Virus record (IMG/VR): IMGVR_UViG_3300014208_000024
Span: 32,001-96,000 of that record
DNA from: a virus
Taxonomy: Duplodnaviria > Caudoviricetes
Strand: one strand, 5' to 3'
Length of the DNA stretch: 64,000 nucleotides
The position numbers and the translations under genes are program-made. The notes under the pieces were generated by a model that was not told where the DNA came from, searched no databases, and saw nothing but the letters and a program-made list of their open reading frames with translations. Below, piece after piece: positions 2,918 to 45,588 of the stretch (the stretch's first letter is position 1; each line of letters opens with the position of its first letter).

Positions 2918-3138
2918 GAAAATTTCGGGGAAAAGCAGCAAAAGTGTTTTTTCTATTCTCTACCACTGAGCTACATCCCCCATGTTTTGTATGATATTTC
3001 ATACATTAATGCCGTTTTTTGTACATAATGTAGTACATATCCAACATTATTTGGAGGGATGGTGGGATTCGAACCCACGACCTTTTGAATCATAGTCAAA
3101 TGCGAAGTAACTCTTGCAATTGCCACCGAAAAATTTTC
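2918..3138 (-). ncRNA. Y-RNA-like element Y3 (permuted tRNA, AUG/His loop, long acceptor linker)
   Basis: Family stem; TTTGA-CTATGAT-TCAAA; T-arm precedes D-arm. Confidence 0.75.
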
Positions 3139-3215: not shown

Positions 3216-3305
3216 TTAACTCATAATAGACATATCACACCCAGATAAACATGTGGTATTATGTTTATGTGTATTCGTATTAATATGTATATTACTTGTT
3301 CTCAT
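3216..3305 (-). CDS. Leader peptide MRTSNIHINTNTHKHNTTCLSGCDMSIMS (Thr/His/Asn-rich)
   Basis: 29-aa ORF between promoter and terminator; 5 Thr, 4 Asn, 3 His; contains antiterminator TCTGGGTG. Confidence 0.8.
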   Translation of the reverse strand: MRTSNIHINTNTHKHNTTCLSGCDMSIMS

Positions 3306-9289: not shown

Positions 9290-9519
9290 AAAAATTATGT
9301 AGATTTGATCCTAACATAAATTTTCTAATCAGGTTGAATTAAAGAATGTAGAGTTTTTTGTTTTTTTAATCATAGGAATTTTTTTTCAAACAAATTTCTT
9401 AAGTGGATTTTTCCACCTTTGTCTTAAAAGACTCTTTAAAATAGATATAAATATCTTCCTACTATAATAAATAGTAAAAAAAAATCTCAACCCTTTCGAA
9501 TTGAGATTTTTATAAAACC

Positions 9520-10250
9520 CTGAGATTATAGGTTTAGTGAGTCAACTTTCGGGGGATTATTGGTTCCCCACCTTATCCACATACCTTGCGGCATGTACCA
9601 ACTCAATCTCGATTGGTTAGACCAATCACCTCTTTCGTCATAAACTACTCTACTGCTACTACCGCCATAACAAGAGTGCCCCCCTGCCATAACATTTCAC
9701 AATAATCCGTTAAACCTTGCGAGTCAAACGTCCCCAGTTCAACCGAAGTTGCCAGGATCTGAGAGACCTTTCGCCTATAACGCCAGCGGAACTTTTGCTT
9801 GCTTGAATTTTTTTCATAAAATTGAAGTTGTGCTTTTAATTGAAGATGTGCCGCTGGAACAGCTTCGTTCCTTTTGGGAACGAAATACTATACACCCTCT
9901 GCGCCCTTTTGCATCGGTACGCTCTCACCTTCGCCGCCCTGTAACTCTTACGAGAACGAGAACTCCAAAGATAAATGGAACACGCTCTAAAGCTTGCTAA
10001 ACCTTGAACATTATTCCTCGGCTTTTCCTATTGCCCCTTTCGGAGATCAACCGCCTCAAGCACTTCAGAGACGATATTTCACTCAGCAGTTGCCCTTGTG
10101 AAATGTACTAACCTATTGTATGCTCGACTTCTTTTCAAAAGCGACAAGATATTAACCTCGCCTTTATCCTGGTCACCCAGTTTATTTTCCTGACCCTTTC
10201 GGATCAGGCTTGACCACCAGTAGGTTGTCAACGACAGCACACTGCCATAA
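9520..10250 (-). ncRNA. Large structured ncRNA, GOLLD-like (about 730 nt)
   Basis: GC-rich non-coding island with many GNRA/UUCG hairpins, own promoter, boxA and terminator; size and tRNA-proximal phage context fit GOLLD. Confidence 0.6.
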
Positions 10251-10370
10251 ATTTTTTATCAATATTTTAAAGAACGTATCTTACTTAATTTTCTACTCTA
10301 TACGCAAAGATAAGAAAAAAGTTTCAAAAAAACAAGTTTTTTTTATTTTTTTTTTAAAAAACTTTTTTTA

Positions 10371-10454
10371 AGAGACGTAACCAGGCTGCTCAACCACTAC
10401 CCTTGCTTTCTTCCGAACCTGGGGGAGTTCGTAGGAGCCTGCCTGTTACGCTTT
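10371..10454 (-). ncRNA. ffs: Small SRP (4.5S) RNA
   Basis: Long hairpin with CAGGTTC-GGAA-GAAAGCA domain IV motif; boxA and promoter upstream. Confidence 0.85.
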
Positions 10455-14440: not shown

Positions 14441-14607
14441 AAATTAGGGAAATTTCGAACTAAGCATTTTTCTTTTTCTGCCCCATTTAACCACTCTGGA
14501 ACCCCCCCGAATTACTCCTTATTTGTCGAGGGGGATGGATTCGAACCACCGAAGGCTTACGCCAGCAGATTCCTTATCGAAGTAACTTAATTTGTTACCA
14601 CTAATTT
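14441..14607 (-). ncRNA. Y-RNA-like element Y4 (permuted tRNA-Tyr-type body, no anticodon loop)
   Basis: Family stem; long variable arm, T-arm, acceptor, D-arm CAGAGTGGTTAAA. Confidence 0.75.
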
Positions 14608-15780: not shown

Positions 15781-15927
15781 AACAGGGAAAATTTATAAGA
15801 GTTTGTTTTACGTGCTCTAACCGACTGAGCTATCCCGCCATTTTCCTTTTATTTGTGGCGGGAGCAGGATTCGAACCTACGGCGACGGCATTATGATTGC
15901 GAAGTAACTCTCATTGTTGCCACTGTT
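15781..15927 (-). ncRNA. Y-RNA-like element Y5 (permuted tRNA, Met CAU loop)
   Basis: Family stem; GCA-ATCATAA-TGC. Confidence 0.75.
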
Positions 15928-15945
15928 TTATCTTAAATATGTTAA

Positions 15946-16098
15946 AAATTAGGGAATTCTTCGCAGAATCTGTTTTTAAGCGCTCTAACCAACTGAGCTA
16001 TCCCCGCATTATTTTTTATTTAGAGCGGGGAACAGGATTCGAACCTATGGCCTCTGTCTTGGAAGGACGATGAAATTCTACATTTTGCCACTAATTTT
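15946..16098 (-). ncRNA. Y-RNA-like element Y6 (permuted tRNA, Gly UCC loop)
   Basis: AGTGGCAA/TTCCCT stem; GTC-CTTCCAA-GAC. Confidence 0.72.
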
Positions 16099-16906: not shown

Positions 16907-17058
16907 AAATCAGGGTAAAAGCGAATAAGCTTTTTTGTTTTTGAATTTTTCCCCATAGTTTAAAATTTAATTGGTGGGGAAAGCAGGATTCGAACCTACA
17001 ATGTTTAGTTTTACAGACTATTTTCTTCCGAAGTAACTCATTCTGTTGCCACTGATTT
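16907..17058 (-). ncRNA. Y-RNA-like element Y7 (Tyr GUA loop, T-arm, acceptor with ACCA, no D-arm)
   Basis: Family stem; TAGT-CTGTAAA-ACTA. Confidence 0.7.
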
Positions 17059-19599: not shown

Positions 19600-19713
19600 T
19601 TAAGGTTTTGAGTTAAACATACCCGTCCCACATCCATAATCAGCATCCGCTGCACATGGATAACCGCCCATTGGGGAAGTTTCTGGTTGACGATATGTAA
19701 AATTTTGTTTCAC
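19600..19713 (-). CDS. Leader peptide (M)KQNFTYRQPETSPMGGYPCAADADYGCGTGMFNSKP
   Basis: 37-aa GTG-start ORF (internal ATG possible); 16 consecutive codons from P,M,G,Y,C,A,D; antiterminator GGGACGGGTATGTTT. Confidence 0.78.
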   Translation of the reverse strand: MKQNFTYRQPETSPMGGYPCAADADYGCGTGMFNSKP

Positions 19714-31760: not shown

Positions 31761-32375
31761 TCATTTAACTATAGCATGATGTTCCCAATATTCAACGCTT
31801 TTTTCATATCTATCTTTGTCAATAGGCATCCCAGACCCTCCGTGTTCTATCCCCAAAGCATTTCTCATTATTGTAATTGGTGTTTGAGGAATTTCAACAT
31901 TTACTTCTTGTCCGAGAATAGCAACAATTCCCCAATCTGCATCAAACCCAAAAATTTCCGTTGTATTATCCTTTGCCATTGCTACTGCTTCTTTTTCAAT
32001 TTGTTCTTTTGAATAAAGGACAAGCATAAGCCACTCAGCTTTTGGTTTTCCAAGTGGTAACTCAAGCCAACGTGAAAGAATTGACAATTCTTTCTCTGTT
32101 CTTGCGGAATATCCACTTCTCAAGTATTGGTAATTTTCCAAGGTTATAGGTAACGATCCAACTCTGGCATCAGTAAAGTTTTTAATAGGCCAAAGTTTGC
32201 AAAAATCAGCATATCCAGGTAATAGTTTTTCTCCTATTGCCACATTATCATCTTCCCAATCAATAAGTTGTTGAATGTATGTTTCAAACTCTTCTATGGT
32301 TTTGTTAAGTATCTTTGTTCCTCCAAATTTTGGATCAAAGTGTCTGGCACCGAATTCTGTTACTTTAATTTTCAT
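31761..32375 (-). CDS. DUF3228 family protein
   Basis: LRSGYSARTEKEL.ILSRW; PITIMRNALG.EHGGSG. Confidence 0.85.
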   Translation of the reverse strand: MKIKVTEFGARHFDPKFGGTKILNKTIEEFETYIQQLIDWEDDNVAIGEKLLPGYADFCKLWPIKNFTDARVGSLPITLENYQYLRSGYSARTEKELSILSRWLELPLGKPKAEWLMLVLYSKEQIEKEAVAMAKDNTTEIFGFDADWGIVAILGQEVNVEIPQTPITIMRNALGIEHGGSGMPIDKDRYEKSVEYWEHHAIVK

Positions 32376-38184: not shown

Positions 38185-38976
38185 ATGAAAACACTATTAT
38201 TTACAATCAGTTTCATCTTGTTTTCTTTAATTTCATTCTCTCAAGATGATATTTATTATTCTCCAAGTCACGACACTGTTACACAGGAAGGAAATACGTA
38301 TATAACCAATAATTATTACTCAGACGAATATGAGTTTGATGATTATTTTTACACAAAAAGACTTTATAGATTTCACAGCAATAGTACATATGGATATTAC
38401 TCCAATTACTATTCTGATTGTTTATTTTTATTTTCTATTGGAGGAGTAGATTTGTATTTGACAAATTATTATTATCCATATTATTACTATAATTATTCCC
38501 CATATTACTACGGATATTATGATCATTCATATTATAACTGGGGACATTCATATTATAACTGGGGACATTCATATAATCACAATAATCATGGATGGAACCA
38601 TAATAATTGGGAAAATCATCATGGAAATGGACATCATAGTTCAAATAATAAACCTACTTATTATGGACATAGAGAAAGTATATCACAAAAAACCACAAAC
38701 AATTCTAGACCATCTTATGTTAAACCGTCTGTTAATTCTAAACCAGAATATAACAAACCAAATACATTTGAATATACAAGGCCACAAAAATATCAAAAAC
38801 CAGTTTTTAATGATTCTAAACCAAATTATTCAAAACCGCAAGTTTATTTTAACAAACCAATAAACACAAAACCAAATAATTATTCGAAACCAAGTAATTA
38901 CTCTAGACCATCTATAAATGTAAGACAGAGTGGGGGAACAATTTCAAAACCATCAAACTCATTTAAGAGAAAATAA
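38185..38976 (+). CDS. Secreted Tyr/His/Asn-rich low-complexity protein (Bacteroidota type)
   Basis: Signal peptide, DDIYYSP, YNWGHS and KPxY repeats. Confidence 0.65.
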   Translation: MKTLLFTISFILFSLISFSQDDIYYSPSHDTVTQEGNTYITNNYYSDEYEFDDYFYTKRLYRFHSNSTYGYYSNYYSDCLFLFSIGGVDLYLTNYYYPYYYYNYSPYYYGYYDHSYYNWGHSYYNWGHSYNHNNHGWNHNNWENHHGNGHHSSNNKPTYYGHRESISQKTTNNSRPSYVKPSVNSKPEYNKPNTFEYTRPQKYQKPVFNDSKPNYSKPQVYFNKPINTKPNNYSKPSNYSRPSINVRQSGGTISKPSNSFKRK

Positions 38977-39001
38977 AAAAAGGGGGGCTTATTCCTCCTT
39001 T

Positions 39002-39076
39002 TGGTACCCCCACCGTGACTCGAACACGAAATTAAAGTTTAGGAAACTTTCGGTATATCCCTTTACCTATGGGGGC
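39002..39076 (-). tRNA. tRNA-Arg(CCU)
   Basis: AAAGT-TTCCTAA-ACTTT; CCA. Confidence 0.85.
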
Positions 39077-39080
39077 ATGA

Positions 39081-39263
39081 TTATTTAATTAATCCAAGTT
39101 TTAATTTTAACCTGGCCTTACTAAGCTTTTCAACAGTTTTATTATATTCTTCTTCTGAAACATTATCTTTAAAGTTTTTGCTCTTAATACGTTTCTCTAA
39201 AAAAGAAATATAATCATTATGCTGAGCTATTGCTGATTTTTTATTTTCTTGTTTGTTTTTCAT
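39081..39263 (-). CDS. Small basic hypothetical protein
   Basis: ORF from MKNKQ. Confidence 0.55.
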   Translation of the reverse strand: MKNKQENKKSAIAQHNDYISFLEKRIKSKNFKDNVSEEEYNKTVEKLSKARLKLKLGLIK

Positions 39264-39275
39264 ATAATAATTTTG

Positions 39276-39349
39276 CAGGCACGGAGGGACTCGAACCCCC
39301 AAATCTTCGCTTTTGGAGAGCGTTATTCTACCAATTGAACTACGCACCT
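39276..39349 (-). tRNA. tRNA-Trp(CCA)
   Basis: CGCT-CTCCAAA-AGCG. Confidence 0.9.
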
Positions 39350-39358
39350 GTATGTTTG

Positions 39359-39430
39359 CGCCAGTGAAGCGACTCGAACACTTAAATCACGGGTTTGGAA
39401 TCCGCTTACCTCTCTCTTGTGGGCACTGAC
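39359..39430 (-). tRNA. tRNA-Trp(CCA), divergent
   Basis: TTCCAAA loop; weak D-arm. Confidence 0.65.
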
Positions 39431-39441
39431 ATTTATTTTTG

Positions 39442-39515
39442 TATCTCAGGAGGGACTCGAACCCCCAACTTTCAGCTTAGAAGGCTGAATTTCTGGTCCA
39501 TTGAATTACTGAGAC
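39442..39515 (-). tRNA. tRNA-Arg(UCU)
   Basis: TCAGC-CTTCTAA-GCTGA. Confidence 0.88.
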
Positions 39516-39521
39516 ATTTTG

Positions 39522-39593
39522 TCTCCCCAGAAGGACTCGAACCTTCACTCGTCAGTTTAGAAAACTGATGCTTATCCATTAAGCTATGGGGAG
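39522..39593 (-). tRNA. tRNA-Arg(UCU)
   Basis: TCAGT-TTTCTAA-ACTGA. Confidence 0.88.
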
Positions 39594-39596
39594 AAA

Positions 39597-39684
39597 TGGC
39601 GGAGAATAAGGGATTCGAACCCCTGGCACCTTTCGGTGCACATGCTTTCCAAGCATGCACCTTAAACCACTCGGTCAACTCTCC
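39597..39684 (-). tRNA. tRNA-Ser(GGA)
   Basis: CATGC-TTGGAAA-GCATG, class II arm. Confidence 0.92.
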
Positions 39685-39689
39685 AAAAC

Positions 39690-39766
39690 AGGACTGCATA
39701 TCTCCAACATCATGCTCCTACTGGTAACTATTTCCAGCGACGAGATTTGAACTCGTTTACATCCTT
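39690..39766 (-). ncRNA. Circularly permuted tRNA-like core without Y stem
   Basis: AGGA/TCCT closing; T-arm ACGAG-TTCAAAT-CTCGT first, then CTGG/CCAG, then D-like arm. Confidence 0.5.
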
Positions 39767-39852
39767 GGCGGAGAGTGCGAGTACCGACCTCGCTTGGCCT
39801 TAAGCCATCCTAAGTTTAGCAAACTTGACTCTTACCTTTCGAGCAACTCTCC
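39766..39852 (-). tRNA. tRNA-Ser(GCU)
   Basis: AAGT-TTGCTAA-ACTT, class II arm, atypical T-loop. Confidence 0.8.
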
Positions 39853-39933
39853 ATTACGTAAAGAATAAATTGTGAAAACTGTTTTTTGTTTTTATTATTT
39901 CCGCATATTTATTATTATATCATTAAATATTTT

Positions 39934-40587
39934 ATGATTCCTTTATATACTCAAGAAGAATTTATTTTAGCAAAATCATCTGATAAATTACCATTACAGT
40001 GTGAACATTGTGGAAAAACTTTTTACACACAAAAAAGAATAATAAAAGACAAAAGGGGTGTTAAAAAGTTTTGTTCTTTTTCTTGTCTTGGAAAATCTAC
40101 ATTACAAAAAACCACAATTAATTGTAAACTATGTAATAAAGAATTTTTAATAAAAAAGTCACAACTAAAAAAAGGAAAAAATCATTTTTGCAGCATTTCA
40201 TGTAATGCACAATATAACAACTCACACAAAACTCACGGTACTAATCGTTCTAAATTAGAAATATGGATTGAAAAAAAACTTTCTGAATTATACCCAAATC
40301 TAAAAATTTTATACAATGATACCACAGCAATAAATTCTGAGCTAGACATTTATATTCCAAAAATAAAATTGGCATTTGAATTAAATGGAATTTTTCATTT
40401 TGAACCCATTTTTGGAAATGAAAAATTAGAAAAATCGAAAAACAATGACAACAAAAAGTTTCAAAAATGTATAAAAAGCAAAATTTCATTATGTATCATA
40501 GACACATCTACTCAAAAATATTTCAAAGAAAACTCTTCTAAAAAATACCTTGATATAATAACAAACATCATTTCAAAGAACATTTAA
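39934..40587 (+). CDS. Zn-ribbon plus PD-(D/E)XK endonuclease
   Basis: Paralog of 18689..19369. Confidence 0.8.
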   Translation: MIPLYTQEEFILAKSSDKLPLQCEHCGKTFYTQKRIIKDKRGVKKFCSFSCLGKSTLQKTTINCKLCNKEFLIKKSQLKKGKNHFCSISCNAQYNNSHKTHGTNRSKLEIWIEKKLSELYPNLKILYNDTTAINSELDIYIPKIKLAFELNGIFHFEPIFGNEKLEKSKNNDNKKFQKCIKSKISLCIIDTSTQKYFKENSSKKYLDIITNIISKNI

Positions 40588-40611
40588 TTGTGTGTAACTC
40601 ATACACTCAAG

Positions 40612-40694
40612 AGGAAGGTAAACGAATCGAACGCTCATCCCGAAGGATGGCCCAGGGTTCAAGCCTGGTTACTCACCACTGAGTGCTACCTTCC
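40612..40694 (-). tRNA. tRNA-Ser(UGA)
   Basis: CCAGG-CTTGAAC-CCTGG. Confidence 0.82.
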
Positions 40695-40713
40695 ATTATT
40701 TTAAAGAACATTT

Positions 40714-40803
40714 TGGCGGAGAAGAAGGGATTCGAACCCCTGGAGCCCTCACGGGCTCAACGGTTTTCAAGACCGCCGCATTCAACCACTCTGCCACTTC
40801 TCC
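40714..40803 (-). tRNA. tRNA-Ser(UGA)
   Basis: CGGT-CTTGAAA-ACCG; CCA. Confidence 0.92.
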
Positions 40804-40839
40804 AAAAAAAACCCCCGATTCATTTCTGACCGAGGGTTT
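40804..40839 (-). terminator. Attenuator terminator of Ser/Arg/Trp tRNA operon
   Basis: CCCTCGGT...ATCGGGGG followed by T8. Confidence 0.85.
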
Positions 40840-40862
40840 CTCTAAAAATATTTTTAACAAAT

Positions 40863-40949
40863 TTAGATAATATGCGGCCAGGAACAAGTAAATCTACTTG
40901 AGCTTCTTCTCCTGGATGACCAATTCATATTTTCAACTTTGTTTTTCAT
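40863..40949 (-). CDS. Leader peptide MKNKVENMNWSSRRRSSSRFTCSWPHII
   Basis: 28-aa ORF with 6 Ser, 4 Arg (AGA/AGG only), 2 Trp; antiterminator CTGGCCG. Confidence 0.85.
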   Translation of the reverse strand: MKNKVENMNWSSRRRSSSRFTCSWPHII

Positions 40950-41033
40950 AACATTAATAAATATACAAAAAAATTCTTTTTTCAATCTATACGGCAAATA
41001 TATAAAAAAGTTACATAAAAACCAAATTATTTT

Positions 41034-41390
41034 TTAAGAATATAAGTTTTCTTCAAAATCTATTGCCATAAAAGCAATTTTTAACGCATCATTATATTGT
41101 TTAAAAGTTCTACAATCTTCTGGGTTATATTCATCCACTTTTAATCTATTTTTACCAAATTTAAGAAAATCATAATATTCAAAAGTAGTAGAATACAACT
41201 CATTACATTCTTCTTCTGATAAAAACTCCACTTGTTCTCTCAATTCATTTATAGATTGCTGATCGAATTCTAATAAACATTTCTCTATAAAAGAATTTAA
41301 TTTATCAATAAATTTTTGTCTTTTAAATCTTTTTGAAACCAAAAGCATAAACTTTGTATAAAACAATTTTTTTAAGATGTCATCTTTCAT
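41034..41390 (-). CDS. Hypothetical protein
   Basis: ORF. Confidence 0.6.
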   Translation of the reverse strand: MKDDILKKLFYTKFMLLVSKRFKRQKFIDKLNSFIEKCLLEFDQQSINELREQVEFLSEEECNELYSTTFEYYDFLKFGKNRLKVDEYNPEDCRTFKQYNDALKIAFMAIDFEENLYS

Positions 41391-42073: not shown

Positions 42074-42251
42074 TTTTCATATTCTTTTATTTGCAAGAAC
42101 AAAACTTGGTTTTCCCAGGCAAACTGAATTGTTTTTGTGTTAATTCTTTCTGTAATTTGTGCACTCATATTATATTTTTAAAACAATATAAAAAAAAATC
42201 CCCCCAAAATCAAGAGATTTCAGAGGAATTTTAGAAACGAAACGAAACGAG

Positions 42252-42324
42252 CCCGACCAGAGGGATTCGAACCCACAACCATCTGTTTTAGGGACAGTTG
42301 CTCTGCCAATTGAGCTATGGAAGG
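42252..42324 (-). tRNA. tRNA-like gene with CUA (amber) anticodon, degenerate acceptor
   Basis: CTGT-CCCTAAA-ACAG; two acceptor mismatches, C33. Confidence 0.55.
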
Positions 42325-43290: not shown

Positions 43291-43335
43291 AATAAAATTT
43301 TAATTTAAGTTATAACCGCACAACATGTGCAATCG

Positions 43336-43409
43336 AAGGAAAGACAGGACTCGAACCTGCGACCAAATCGGTTCTAGAAACCGTTGCTCTGCCACTGAGC
43401 TACATTCCC
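43336..43409 (-). tRNA. tRNA with CUA (amber) anticodon
   Basis: CGGT-TTCTAGA-ACCG; canonical D and T arms. Confidence 0.7.
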
Positions 43410-44880: not shown

Positions 44881-44998
44881 TGTGCTACACATTGTTTTTT
44901 TACATGTTTTGCAAACTTTACTCACAAACAACTACAGCTGATTGTTGTTTGCTTTCATCATTCACTCCACAATCTGAAACGTGTTAAGCAGCCATTTG

Positions 44999-45067
44999 TA
45001 GGCGGAGATGGATACGAACCACCAATCTTCTATTCGAAGATAGACGCTTTACTTAAGCTACCCGCCT
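44999..45067 (-). tRNA. tRNA-like gene, 6-nt anticodon loop CTTCGA (Arg UCG-like)
   Basis: AGGCGGG/TCCGCCT acceptor; TCTAT/ATAGA stem. Confidence 0.55.
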
Positions 45068-45156: not shown

Positions 45157-45204
45157 TGGTGCTGAGAAGGGGATTTAAACCCCCTGCATCACTAAAGACT
45201 CAGC
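45157..45204 (-). ncRNA. Acceptor/T-arm minihelix ending ACCA, overlapping the Pth2-like stop codon
   Basis: GCTGAG/CTCAGC-ACCA; GGGG-TTTAAAT-CCCC. Confidence 0.6.
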
Positions 45205-45588
45205 GTTTTTATAACTATTTTTATCTATTAAACCATTTAAATTATTTTCTTTTAGGGCACAAGGTAAATTCCTACACACCCTTTTTGATTCATCGGATGG
45301 TTCTAAAGCAATAGCCGTAACTTGATTGTCAATATCAGGCTCTCTAAAGATGGAAATAGTAATTCCCCTTGAGTGAGCTTTTTCAATCAAGAACAACATT
45401 TCTTTTTCGTCTTTTACAGACAAATACGCTAAATAATTGGAATTTTTGTGCCAGGAGTTGGCGATGTTATTGTGTTCTAAACAAAATTCAGCTAAAGCGT
45501 GGCCGCCTTGTACAGCTTGATAAGCAGTGGTCAAATCTCTTCTGACAACCACTATTAATTTTGCATTATTCTCAACAATCTATAACAT
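45175..45588 (-). CDS. Pth2-like peptidyl-tRNA hydrolase with in-frame UAG at codon 3
   Basis: VVRRDL...QAVQGGHA...FREPDIDNQVTAIAL; upstream in-frame ATG TTA TAG ATT GTT. Confidence 0.8.

Follow-up and report, generated by a model that had tools for sequence, protein, structure and literature searches.

Leader-peptide attenuators are known from enterobacteria, in which trpL, hisL, leuL and pheL, and the multivalent thrL and ilvL, combine a promoter-proximal short open reading frame (ORF) rich in control codons, alternative 1:2, 2:3 and 3:4 hairpins, and an intrinsic terminator placed before the structural genes. The thr (Thr/Ile) and ilvGMEDA (Ile/Val/Leu) leaders sense several amino acids together, and in the leu leader, with its CUA codons, the choice of a rare codon matters. 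In Escherichia coli pheST, attenuation by the pheM leader keeps a component of translation in step with the level of charged tRNA. T-box riboswitches also choose between terminator and antiterminator according to the state of a specific tRNA, at the level of the isoacceptor, through a codon-like specifier. Why phages carry tRNA genes, and what use they make of them, is a matter of debate, and the reasons considered include compensation of codon usage, replacement of degraded host tRNAs and evasion of anticodon nucleases.

Here we describe a leader of the enterobacterial layout that precedes an operon of Ser, Arg and Trp tRNA genes in a large phage from groundwater. Judged from its sequence, and with a probability of about 80%, this element is a ribosome-mediated (leader-peptide, trp/his-type) transcription attenuator that gates the phage tRNA operon, and the phage probably restricts synthesis of the Ser/Arg/Trp tRNAs to times at which they are in short supply for the ribosomes. 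It would share multivalent sensing with the thr and ilvGMEDA leaders, the importance of rare codons with the leu leader, the link to charged-tRNA level with pheST, and isoacceptor-level specificity with the T-boxes. In contrast to the enterobacterial attenuators, however, the phage element regulates tRNAs rather than biosynthetic enzymes, so that the product is itself the thing sensed; its leader samples one codon per isoacceptor, instead of a run of one codon; and it is phage-encoded, has promoters of the Bacteroidota type and bears no sequence relation to them. The pheST attenuator, unlike the phage leaders, is cellular, controls a synthetase and senses a single amino acid, whereas T-boxes bind uncharged tRNA directly, without translation, and control synthetase or amino-acid genes. 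The mechanism is of a known kind, and its target (tRNA genes) and per-isoacceptor logic are new; in the open-access literature we did not find tRNA genes described as being under the control of a leader peptide, an absence that is not proof.

The Ser/Arg/Trp tRNA operon and its leader

The phage record (IMG/VR IMGVR_UViG_3300014208_000024, referred to as G000) contains 372,283 bp with a G+C content of 28.7%, is rated complete and originates from groundwater metagenomes. Two groundwater DNA sequencing runs were found to contain the phage, and no RNA runs. About 50 tRNA genes are present in the genome, nearly all on the minus strand. Coordinates without a prefix refer to the window, that is, the whole 64,000-nt stretch of this record that was analysed (positions 32,001 to 96,000).

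After the leader, the operon runs Ser(UGA), Ser(UGA), an opposite-strand ORF, Ser(GCU), Ser(GGA), two Arg(UCU) genes, a CCA tRNA-like gene, Trp(CCA), a 60-codon ORF, Arg(CCU) and a terminator (Table 1). ARAGORN or Rfam called every tRNA that an earlier note, made from the sequence alone, had listed here (Ser UGA twice, GGA and GCU; Arg UCU twice and CCU; Trp) with the exception of the second of its two Trp genes, which neither program calls and in which inspection by eye shows an anticodon loop with CCA, a T-arm and an acceptor stem whose strands pair. The operon does lack a CGN-reading Arg tRNA, as the note stated; the only two in the genome, both Arg(ACG), are located in another operon. The 60-codon ORF between the Trp and Arg(CCU) genes (39081-39263, minus strand) is Lys/Glu-rich, and other tRNA operons are interrupted by similar ORFs with HNH-like CxxCH motifs or HTH, for example at 2017-2586. 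Since the leader terminator abuts the first tRNA gene, a promoter of their own is impossible for the first two tRNAs. The distal tRNAs, in contrast, may depend only partly on the attenuator, because they lie behind the opposite-strand ORF of about 700 nt and a weak promoter-like stretch is present upstream of tRNA-Ser(GCU).

Table 1. Features of the leader and of the Ser/Arg/Trp tRNA operon (window coordinates)
Feature	Position	Strand	Basis or remark
Putative promoter, Bacteroidota type: TTTG (-33), ~20 nt, TAtaTTTG (-7)	40995..41026	-	sequence reading
Conserved A/T box AAnAATTTTTTTnnnTATTTAnnA, between predicted transcription start and start codon	40954..40976	-	in all six genome cassettes and before PTH2 gene
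Leader ORF, 28 codons + TAA, ATG start	40863..40949	-	ORF list, composition
Control codons TGG TCA TCC AGG AGA AGA AGC TCA AGT AGA ... TCC TGG	40878..40922	-	codon-anticodon match
Predicted hairpin 1:2 (anti-antiterminator or pause): CCAGGAG 40915-40909 / TTCCTGG 40884-40878	40878..40915	-	MFE folds
Predicted antiterminator 5' strand CTGGCCG, codons 23-25, ends 8 nt ahead of stop codon	40875..40881	-	duplex/fold prediction
Predicted antiterminator 3' strand CGGTCAG, within terminator 5' arm	40826..40832	-	duplex/fold prediction
Intrinsic terminator: hairpin 40836-40812, T8 40811-40804	40804..40836	-	abuts tRNA-Ser(UGA) start 40803, no spacer
tRNA-Ser(UGA), first gene of operon	40714..40803	-	ARAGORN; Rfam 59.9 bits
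Putative boxA-like ATGTTCTTTAAAATAAT, between first and second tRNA-Ser(UGA)	40695..40711	-	sequence reading
tRNA-Ser(UGA), second copy	40611..40694	-	ARAGORN
233-aa ORF interrupting operon, opposite strand	39886..40587	+	sole domain match zf-FCS
tRNA-Ser(GCU)	39766..39852	-	Rfam 33.2 bits; ARAGORN at lower threshold
tRNA-Ser(GGA)	39597..39684	-	ARAGORN
tRNA-Arg(UCU), two genes	39441..39593	-	ARAGORN
Non-canonical tRNA-like gene, CCA anticodon loop	39357..39430	-	by-eye reading
tRNA-Trp(CCA)	39275..39349	-	ARAGORN
tRNA-Arg(CCU), last gene of operon	39002..39076	-	ARAGORN
G/C hairpin + T-run after tRNA-Arg(CCU)	~38976-38999	-	read from sequence

Upstream of the leader, a 118-codon gene terminates at 41034. 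Transcription is predicted to start at about 40988; the leader ORF begins some 40 nt farther downstream, and the leader is only about 145 nt long. Near-identical promoters precede other tRNA operons, a GOLLD RNA and a suppressor tRNA, and in a Barnesiella MAG the same motif serves as the apparent promoter of an ordinary gene. The host is presumed to belong to the Bacteroidota on the grounds of the promoter type and of the Barnesiella match. A boxA-like motif, which we take to resemble the boxA of rrn operons, lies directly after the terminator in the other cassettes of the genome described below, and after the first tRNA in this operon.

Several other elements of the genome are associated with the same signals or with tRNAs. 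The GOLLD RNA (9517-9900, minus strand; Rfam 226.6 bits) is preceded by a promoter of the same type (near 10327) and by a boxA-like motif, and a small SRP RNA of the bacterial type occurs at 10370-10453 (42.3 bits). A gene for a PTH2-type peptidyl-tRNA hydrolase (45175-45552, minus strand; Pfam 1.7e-08) is found behind the same promoter and A/T box, and is followed by a tRNA with a six-base anticodon loop (44998-45067, minus strand) that ARAGORN assigns to Glu or Arg. Repeated cassettes (GGTGGCAA ... AGTTACTTCG ... TTTTCCCC) were recognized on the minus strand at 2918-3135, 1606-1733, 14441-14607, 15781-16098 and 16907-17058, and also at G000:C1:23991-24131. They enclose apparent circularly permuted tRNA halves: the half with the anticodon arm, the T-arm and the 3' acceptor strand stands ahead of the half that supplies the 5' acceptor strand and the D-arm. 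In the copy at 2918-3135 both acceptor strands pair. These cassettes are located within the operons that have putative attenuators, immediately past the boxA-like motif.

Leader peptides and codons across operons and relatives

The core peptide of the leader is W S S R R R S S S R F T C S W. Ser, Arg and Trp account for 12 of the 27 residues that follow the first Met, compared with 11% in the long ORFs of the genome (P 1.3e-5). The codon reading given in the earlier note was exact, with TTT ACT TGT standing before the final TCC TGG in the core of 40949..40863 (minus strand). All six anticodon species of the operon (UGA, GGA, GCU, UCU, CCU and CCA) find a Watson-Crick codon in the leader (P 0.021 given the peptide). 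The Ser codons are TCA and TCC (two each), AGC and AGT, and TCT is not used at all; in the whole genome TCT is the commonest Ser codon (35%) and TCC makes up 4%. That note had also taken the use of AGA and AGG alone for Arg as evidence for a match to the operon tRNAs. This observation is uninformative on its own, because AGR represents 89% of Arg codons (AGA 0.77, AGG 0.12) in a 29%-GC genome, and four AGR codons out of four are expected with P 0.63.

The region upstream of every tRNA cluster of the genome was then compared with this leader. Six clusters open with the same cassette, composed of promoter, A/T box, short ORF, terminator and GTTCTTTAAAATA motif, the cassette of the Lys cluster having a different promoter. 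Four of the six leader ORFs open with ATG AAA, and the others with ATG ATG, ATG AGA or GTG. The middle part differs from leader to leader and matches the amino acids of its own operon. In addition to the Ser/Arg/Trp leader, the leader cores are QSRFQVVFFVQQVQ (operon Gln, Phe, Arg(ACG) and Val), LSLCLCLLL (five Leu genes with UAA twice, UAG, CAA and AAG, and Cys), IIKKSISIKIKK (four Lys genes plus two D-armless Ile(GAU)/Ile(UAU)-like genes), TSNIHINTNTHKHNTT (Asn, His and three Thr genes) and PMGGYPCAADADYGCGTGM (Asp, Gly, Tyr, Met, Pro and Ala). A matrix of leaders by operons is diagonal: enrichment for the own set is 2- to 4.5-fold, as against 0.1- to 1.8-fold off the diagonal. The binomial P for the match with the own operon is 1e-5 to 3e-4 in five of six leaders, and the true pairing ranks first among 720 permutations. 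The matrix and the permutation test rule out that the ORF is a chance occurrence.

Cys codons (TGT/TGC) recur near the antiterminator segment in four leaders of operons that have no tRNA-Cys (40863-40949, 3216-3305 and 19600-19713 in the window, and G000:C1:4098-4193), and the only tRNA-Cys of the genome is in the Leu operon; these codons may reflect RNA structure. The two D-armless genes of the Lys operon are tRNA-like genes found by Rfam and missed by ARAGORN (G000:C1:31004-31168, minus strand, just left of the window), apparently without a D-arm; their GAU and UAU anticodon loops match ATT and ATA codons in the Lys/Ile leader. A second conserved mini-ORF, MMLNMVKYKRKR, with the Arg codons CGA and CGT (G000:C1:31527-31565, minus strand), is followed by a hairpin without a T-run. 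It sits between the Lys attenuator terminator and the first tRNA-Lys, is also present in G001, L045 and L066 (see below for related contigs), and may constitute a second control step.

A search with the promoter motif yielded two related IMG/VR contigs, G001 (229 kb) and G002 (91 kb), as well as 49 stretches of metagenome sequence and a pair of contigs from an archaeal MAG. The latter, L072 and L073 (JAVHOF010000085.1 and JAVHOF010000128.1), probably phage contigs that were mis-binned, are filed under a Candidatus Pacearchaeota MAG and carry the family promoter, tRNA arrays, and leaders of the Asp and Leu classes. Altogether 28 leader instances were collected. Their ORFs have 19-38 codons, with start, frame and stop kept in all 28, and each is followed by an intrinsic terminator 11-47 nt past the stop. 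A seventh class has a Glu-rich leader (IEESEREEE) ahead of tRNA-Glu genes. A Phe tRNA seemed at first to be missing behind the F-rich leader of G002, and two were found with Rfam and looser ARAGORN settings. Other searches were less productive: the upstream protein retrieved no close relatives from IMG/VR, neither the leader DNA nor the 881-aa neighbour protein was matched among GenBank phages, and a degenerate codon pattern for W-S-S-R-R-R-S-S-S-R found G001 as its sole match in IMG/VR.

The Ser-class ORF, with its ATG AAA start and its stop, is conserved in G001, L042 and L036. G001 shares the whole run of ten control codons, TGG through AGA (30 nt), without a change, and five of the nine preceding codons differ. 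One Ser codon is inserted in L042, and the leader of L036 is reshuffled (SSWSSSRRSSR). The L036 operon consists of four genes, Ser(UGA), Trp, Arg(UCU) and Ser(GCU); Ser(GGA) is absent from it, and TCC is absent from its leader.

We next resampled synonymous codons from genome usage with the peptides fixed, restricting the test to multi-isoacceptor families (25 species). A Watson-Crick codon is present in the own leader for 23 of the 25 isoacceptor species; the resampling mean is 16.2, and 23 was reached in none of 5000 trials. In four-codon boxes with a G34 or A34 tRNA, the C-ending codon is used at six of ten places, compared with about 15% expected (P 0.002), whereas two-codon boxes with a single tRNA retain the usual T-ending codons. 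This preference for C-ending codons is what would be expected if each leader codon is read well by one tRNA species only. The leader of the Arg(ACG) operon uses CGC and CGT. CGC accounts for 2% of Arg codons, and its position in the leader is unchanged across all five Arg(ACG)-operon lineages seen. A check of the homologs, suggested in the earlier note, thus places the contrast in Arg codons between leaders, with AGR only in four of four Ser/Arg/Trp lineages and CGC in five of five Arg(ACG) lineages. Its more general claim, that leaders match the operon tRNAs at the level of codons, is borne out by the 23/25 coverage, the split between CGC and AGR, and the absence of TCC where tRNA-Ser(GGA) is absent. 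What a stalled ribosome reports is the charged cognate tRNA, which depends on both isoacceptor and amino-acid supply.

It is conceivable that the attenuator senses the supply of amino acids only, and that the synonymous choice is incidental, arising from genome bias or RNA structure. The chance expectation of all-AGR usage would fit such an explanation, as would the position of several control codons inside hairpin arms, where they are constrained by structure. The Pro/Gly leader of G000, moreover, lacks CCC and CCG, and in the counter-example L071 the leader has ACG and ACC and tRNA-Thr(UGU) alone was found. However, the isoacceptor coverage was not reached by synonymous resampling, and across lineages the rare codons CGC, CTC, TCC, ACG and ACC are retained, whereas the common TCT and CTT are never used. 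Furthermore, the output would not answer the signal, because more tRNA cannot cure amino-acid starvation. We therefore regard sensing of amino acids only as improbable.

Alternative folds and a proposed attenuation cycle

All parts expected of a ribosome-mediated attenuator can be recognized at this locus: promoter, ORF, predicted 1:2 hairpin, candidate 2:3 pairing, and a terminator that abuts the first tRNA. The predicted 1:2 hairpin overlaps the control codons and encloses an inner hairpin (CAAGTA/TACTTG, 40900-40885), which is retained in G001 and L042 and takes the form CAAG-GAAA-CTTG in L036. Calculated folding energies are -11.8 kcal/mol for the terminator core and -41.8 for the whole leader fold. 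The earlier note had pointed out that CTGGCCG can pair with CGGTCAG in the terminator 5' arm. Seven pairs (one G-U) are indeed possible and equivalents exist in three relatives, but this pairing alone is not significant against shuffled sequences (p 0.05-0.11). The equivalent in L042 is CTGGCCGA/TCGGTCAG, lengthened to eight pairs, and that in G001 is CTGGCCGAA/TTCGACTAG; in L036 the partners are swapped, with TGGTCAGA in the ORF and TCTGGCCA in the terminator.

Among all leader instances, a late segment of the ORF pairs with the terminator 5' arm in 22 of 28 (p<=0.05, beating 95% of dinucleotide shuffles), and the best antiterminator duplex is always located towards the ORF end, with its own end 3-31 nt ahead of the stop. 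The Lys leader shows a compensating change, from GAATGGG/CCCATTC to GCTGGG/CCCAGC, by which the peptide is altered and the helix kept. Column-wise covariation counts on the four Ser leaders were dropped, because MAFFT sets the L036 pairing one column out of register, and were replaced by duplex predictions and constrained folds. In the constrained folds, all four Ser leaders formed the 1:2 hairpin plus terminator without a ribosome, and the terminator when a ribosome occupied the stop codon; with the ribosome on the Arg codons, before synthesis of the terminator 3' arm, the antiterminator was obtained. The full-length MFE favours the terminator even with a stalled ribosome, so that the choice has to be made kinetically, as it is in the classical attenuators.

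We propose the following cycle. The host-type promoter would start a transcript that encodes the 28-codon peptide (87 nt), whose control codons are those that the operon's own Ser (UGA, GGA, GCU), Arg (UCU, CCU) and Trp (CCA) tRNAs would read. When charged cognate tRNAs are plentiful, the ribosome would reach the TAA and cover CTGGCCG, the terminator would form, and the polymerase would stop at the T8 tract, one base before tRNA-Ser. When no ribosome is present, the CCAGGAG/TTCCTGG hairpin would sequester the CTGGCCG segment, with the same outcome, termination. When one or another of the sampled tRNAs is scarce, the ribosome would stall on the Ser/Arg/Trp codons and melt the 1:2 hairpin. The freed CTGGCCG could then pair with CGGTCAG before the terminator 3' arm is made, and transcription would read through into the tRNA genes. 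The extra tRNA would relieve the signal, which makes the loop a negative feedback on tRNA supply; since the leader contains a codon for each anticodon species, the feedback would distinguish single isoacceptors. The phage would operate at least six loops of this kind, each tRNA operon having its own. Translation of the ORF, its coupling to transcription and the regulatory response are all deduced from sequence, and coupling in the presumed Bacteroidota host is an assumption.

The genome also encodes suppressor-type tRNAs with the anticodons UUA and CUA (the latter twice), at 1634-1706, 42251-42324 and 43335-43409 (minus strand), and the one at 42324 is directly behind a promoter, without leader or terminator. 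Since all six G000 leaders terminate in TAA, attenuation might in principle be changed by a UAA suppressor at a late stage of infection, which is speculation.

Two further explanations would dispense with the leader peptide. The hairpin and T8 tract could be a terminator or insulator of the upstream genes, with the small ORF untranslated and the tRNAs made by read-through or from other promoters, and intrinsic terminators are in fact common in the region. This is very unlikely: a putative strong promoter separates the ORF from the upstream gene, no promoter can fit between the T8 tract and tRNA-Ser, the composition match is far above chance and recurs in seven classes, and start, frame and stop of the ORF are conserved throughout. 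An RNA-only sensor that binds tRNA directly, like a T-box, or a protein-dependent switch with the ORF as a by-product, could appeal to the existence of tRNA-responsive terminator/antiterminator switches and to the conserved A/T box upstream of each ORF, but is scarcely credible, given that so short a leader has no Stem I or specifier architecture, that a single specifier cannot explain an in-frame match to several amino acids and codons, and that no T-box or other leader family of Rfam release 15 matched 38900-41100 at E<=1.

A similar layout in phiCbK, and phage tRNA supply

The layout of a ribosome-mediated attenuator before tRNA genes is also found in the Caulobacter phage phiCbK (JX100813). 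In this phage an ORF containing QFVRQIQVV is followed by an annotated terminator, and then by Phe, Val, Ile, Ile, Val, Gln and Gln tRNAs. A second ORF, gp083, has 45 codons and encodes a peptide in which Ser, Ala, Thr, Leu, Pro and Lys are abundant. It, too, is followed by a terminator, and behind it lie Pro, Lys, Leu and Ser tRNAs, in a block for which the annotation lists neither an Ala nor a Thr tRNA. Leader regions of this phage are located at JX100813 49540-49769 and 51341-51502. The sequence thus partly confirms the same design in phiCbK. The two phages share the layout but are unrelated, and differ in host, GC content, promoters and leader sequences, which points to an independent origin or a very old divergence.

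On balance we lean towards a broader view, held with less assurance than the attenuator itself: that large phages carry a per-isoacceptor 'tRNA-stat', which would sample one uniquely read codon for each tRNA of an operon and replace exactly those tRNAs that fall short during infection, for instance when the host is shut off or when host anticodon nucleases cleave them, and that this design has arisen in unrelated lineages, namely the Bacteroidota-type groundwater phage and phiCbK-like Caulobacter phages. Because phiCbK can be cultured in Caulobacter and has the same layout, the idea is directly testable. If it is true, the supply of tRNA in these phages would be demand-driven and resolved by isoacceptor, textbook attenuation would extend to genes for stable RNAs, with feedback from these genes on the sensor that controls them, and the leaders would report, in a compact and natural form, how available a single tRNA species is.
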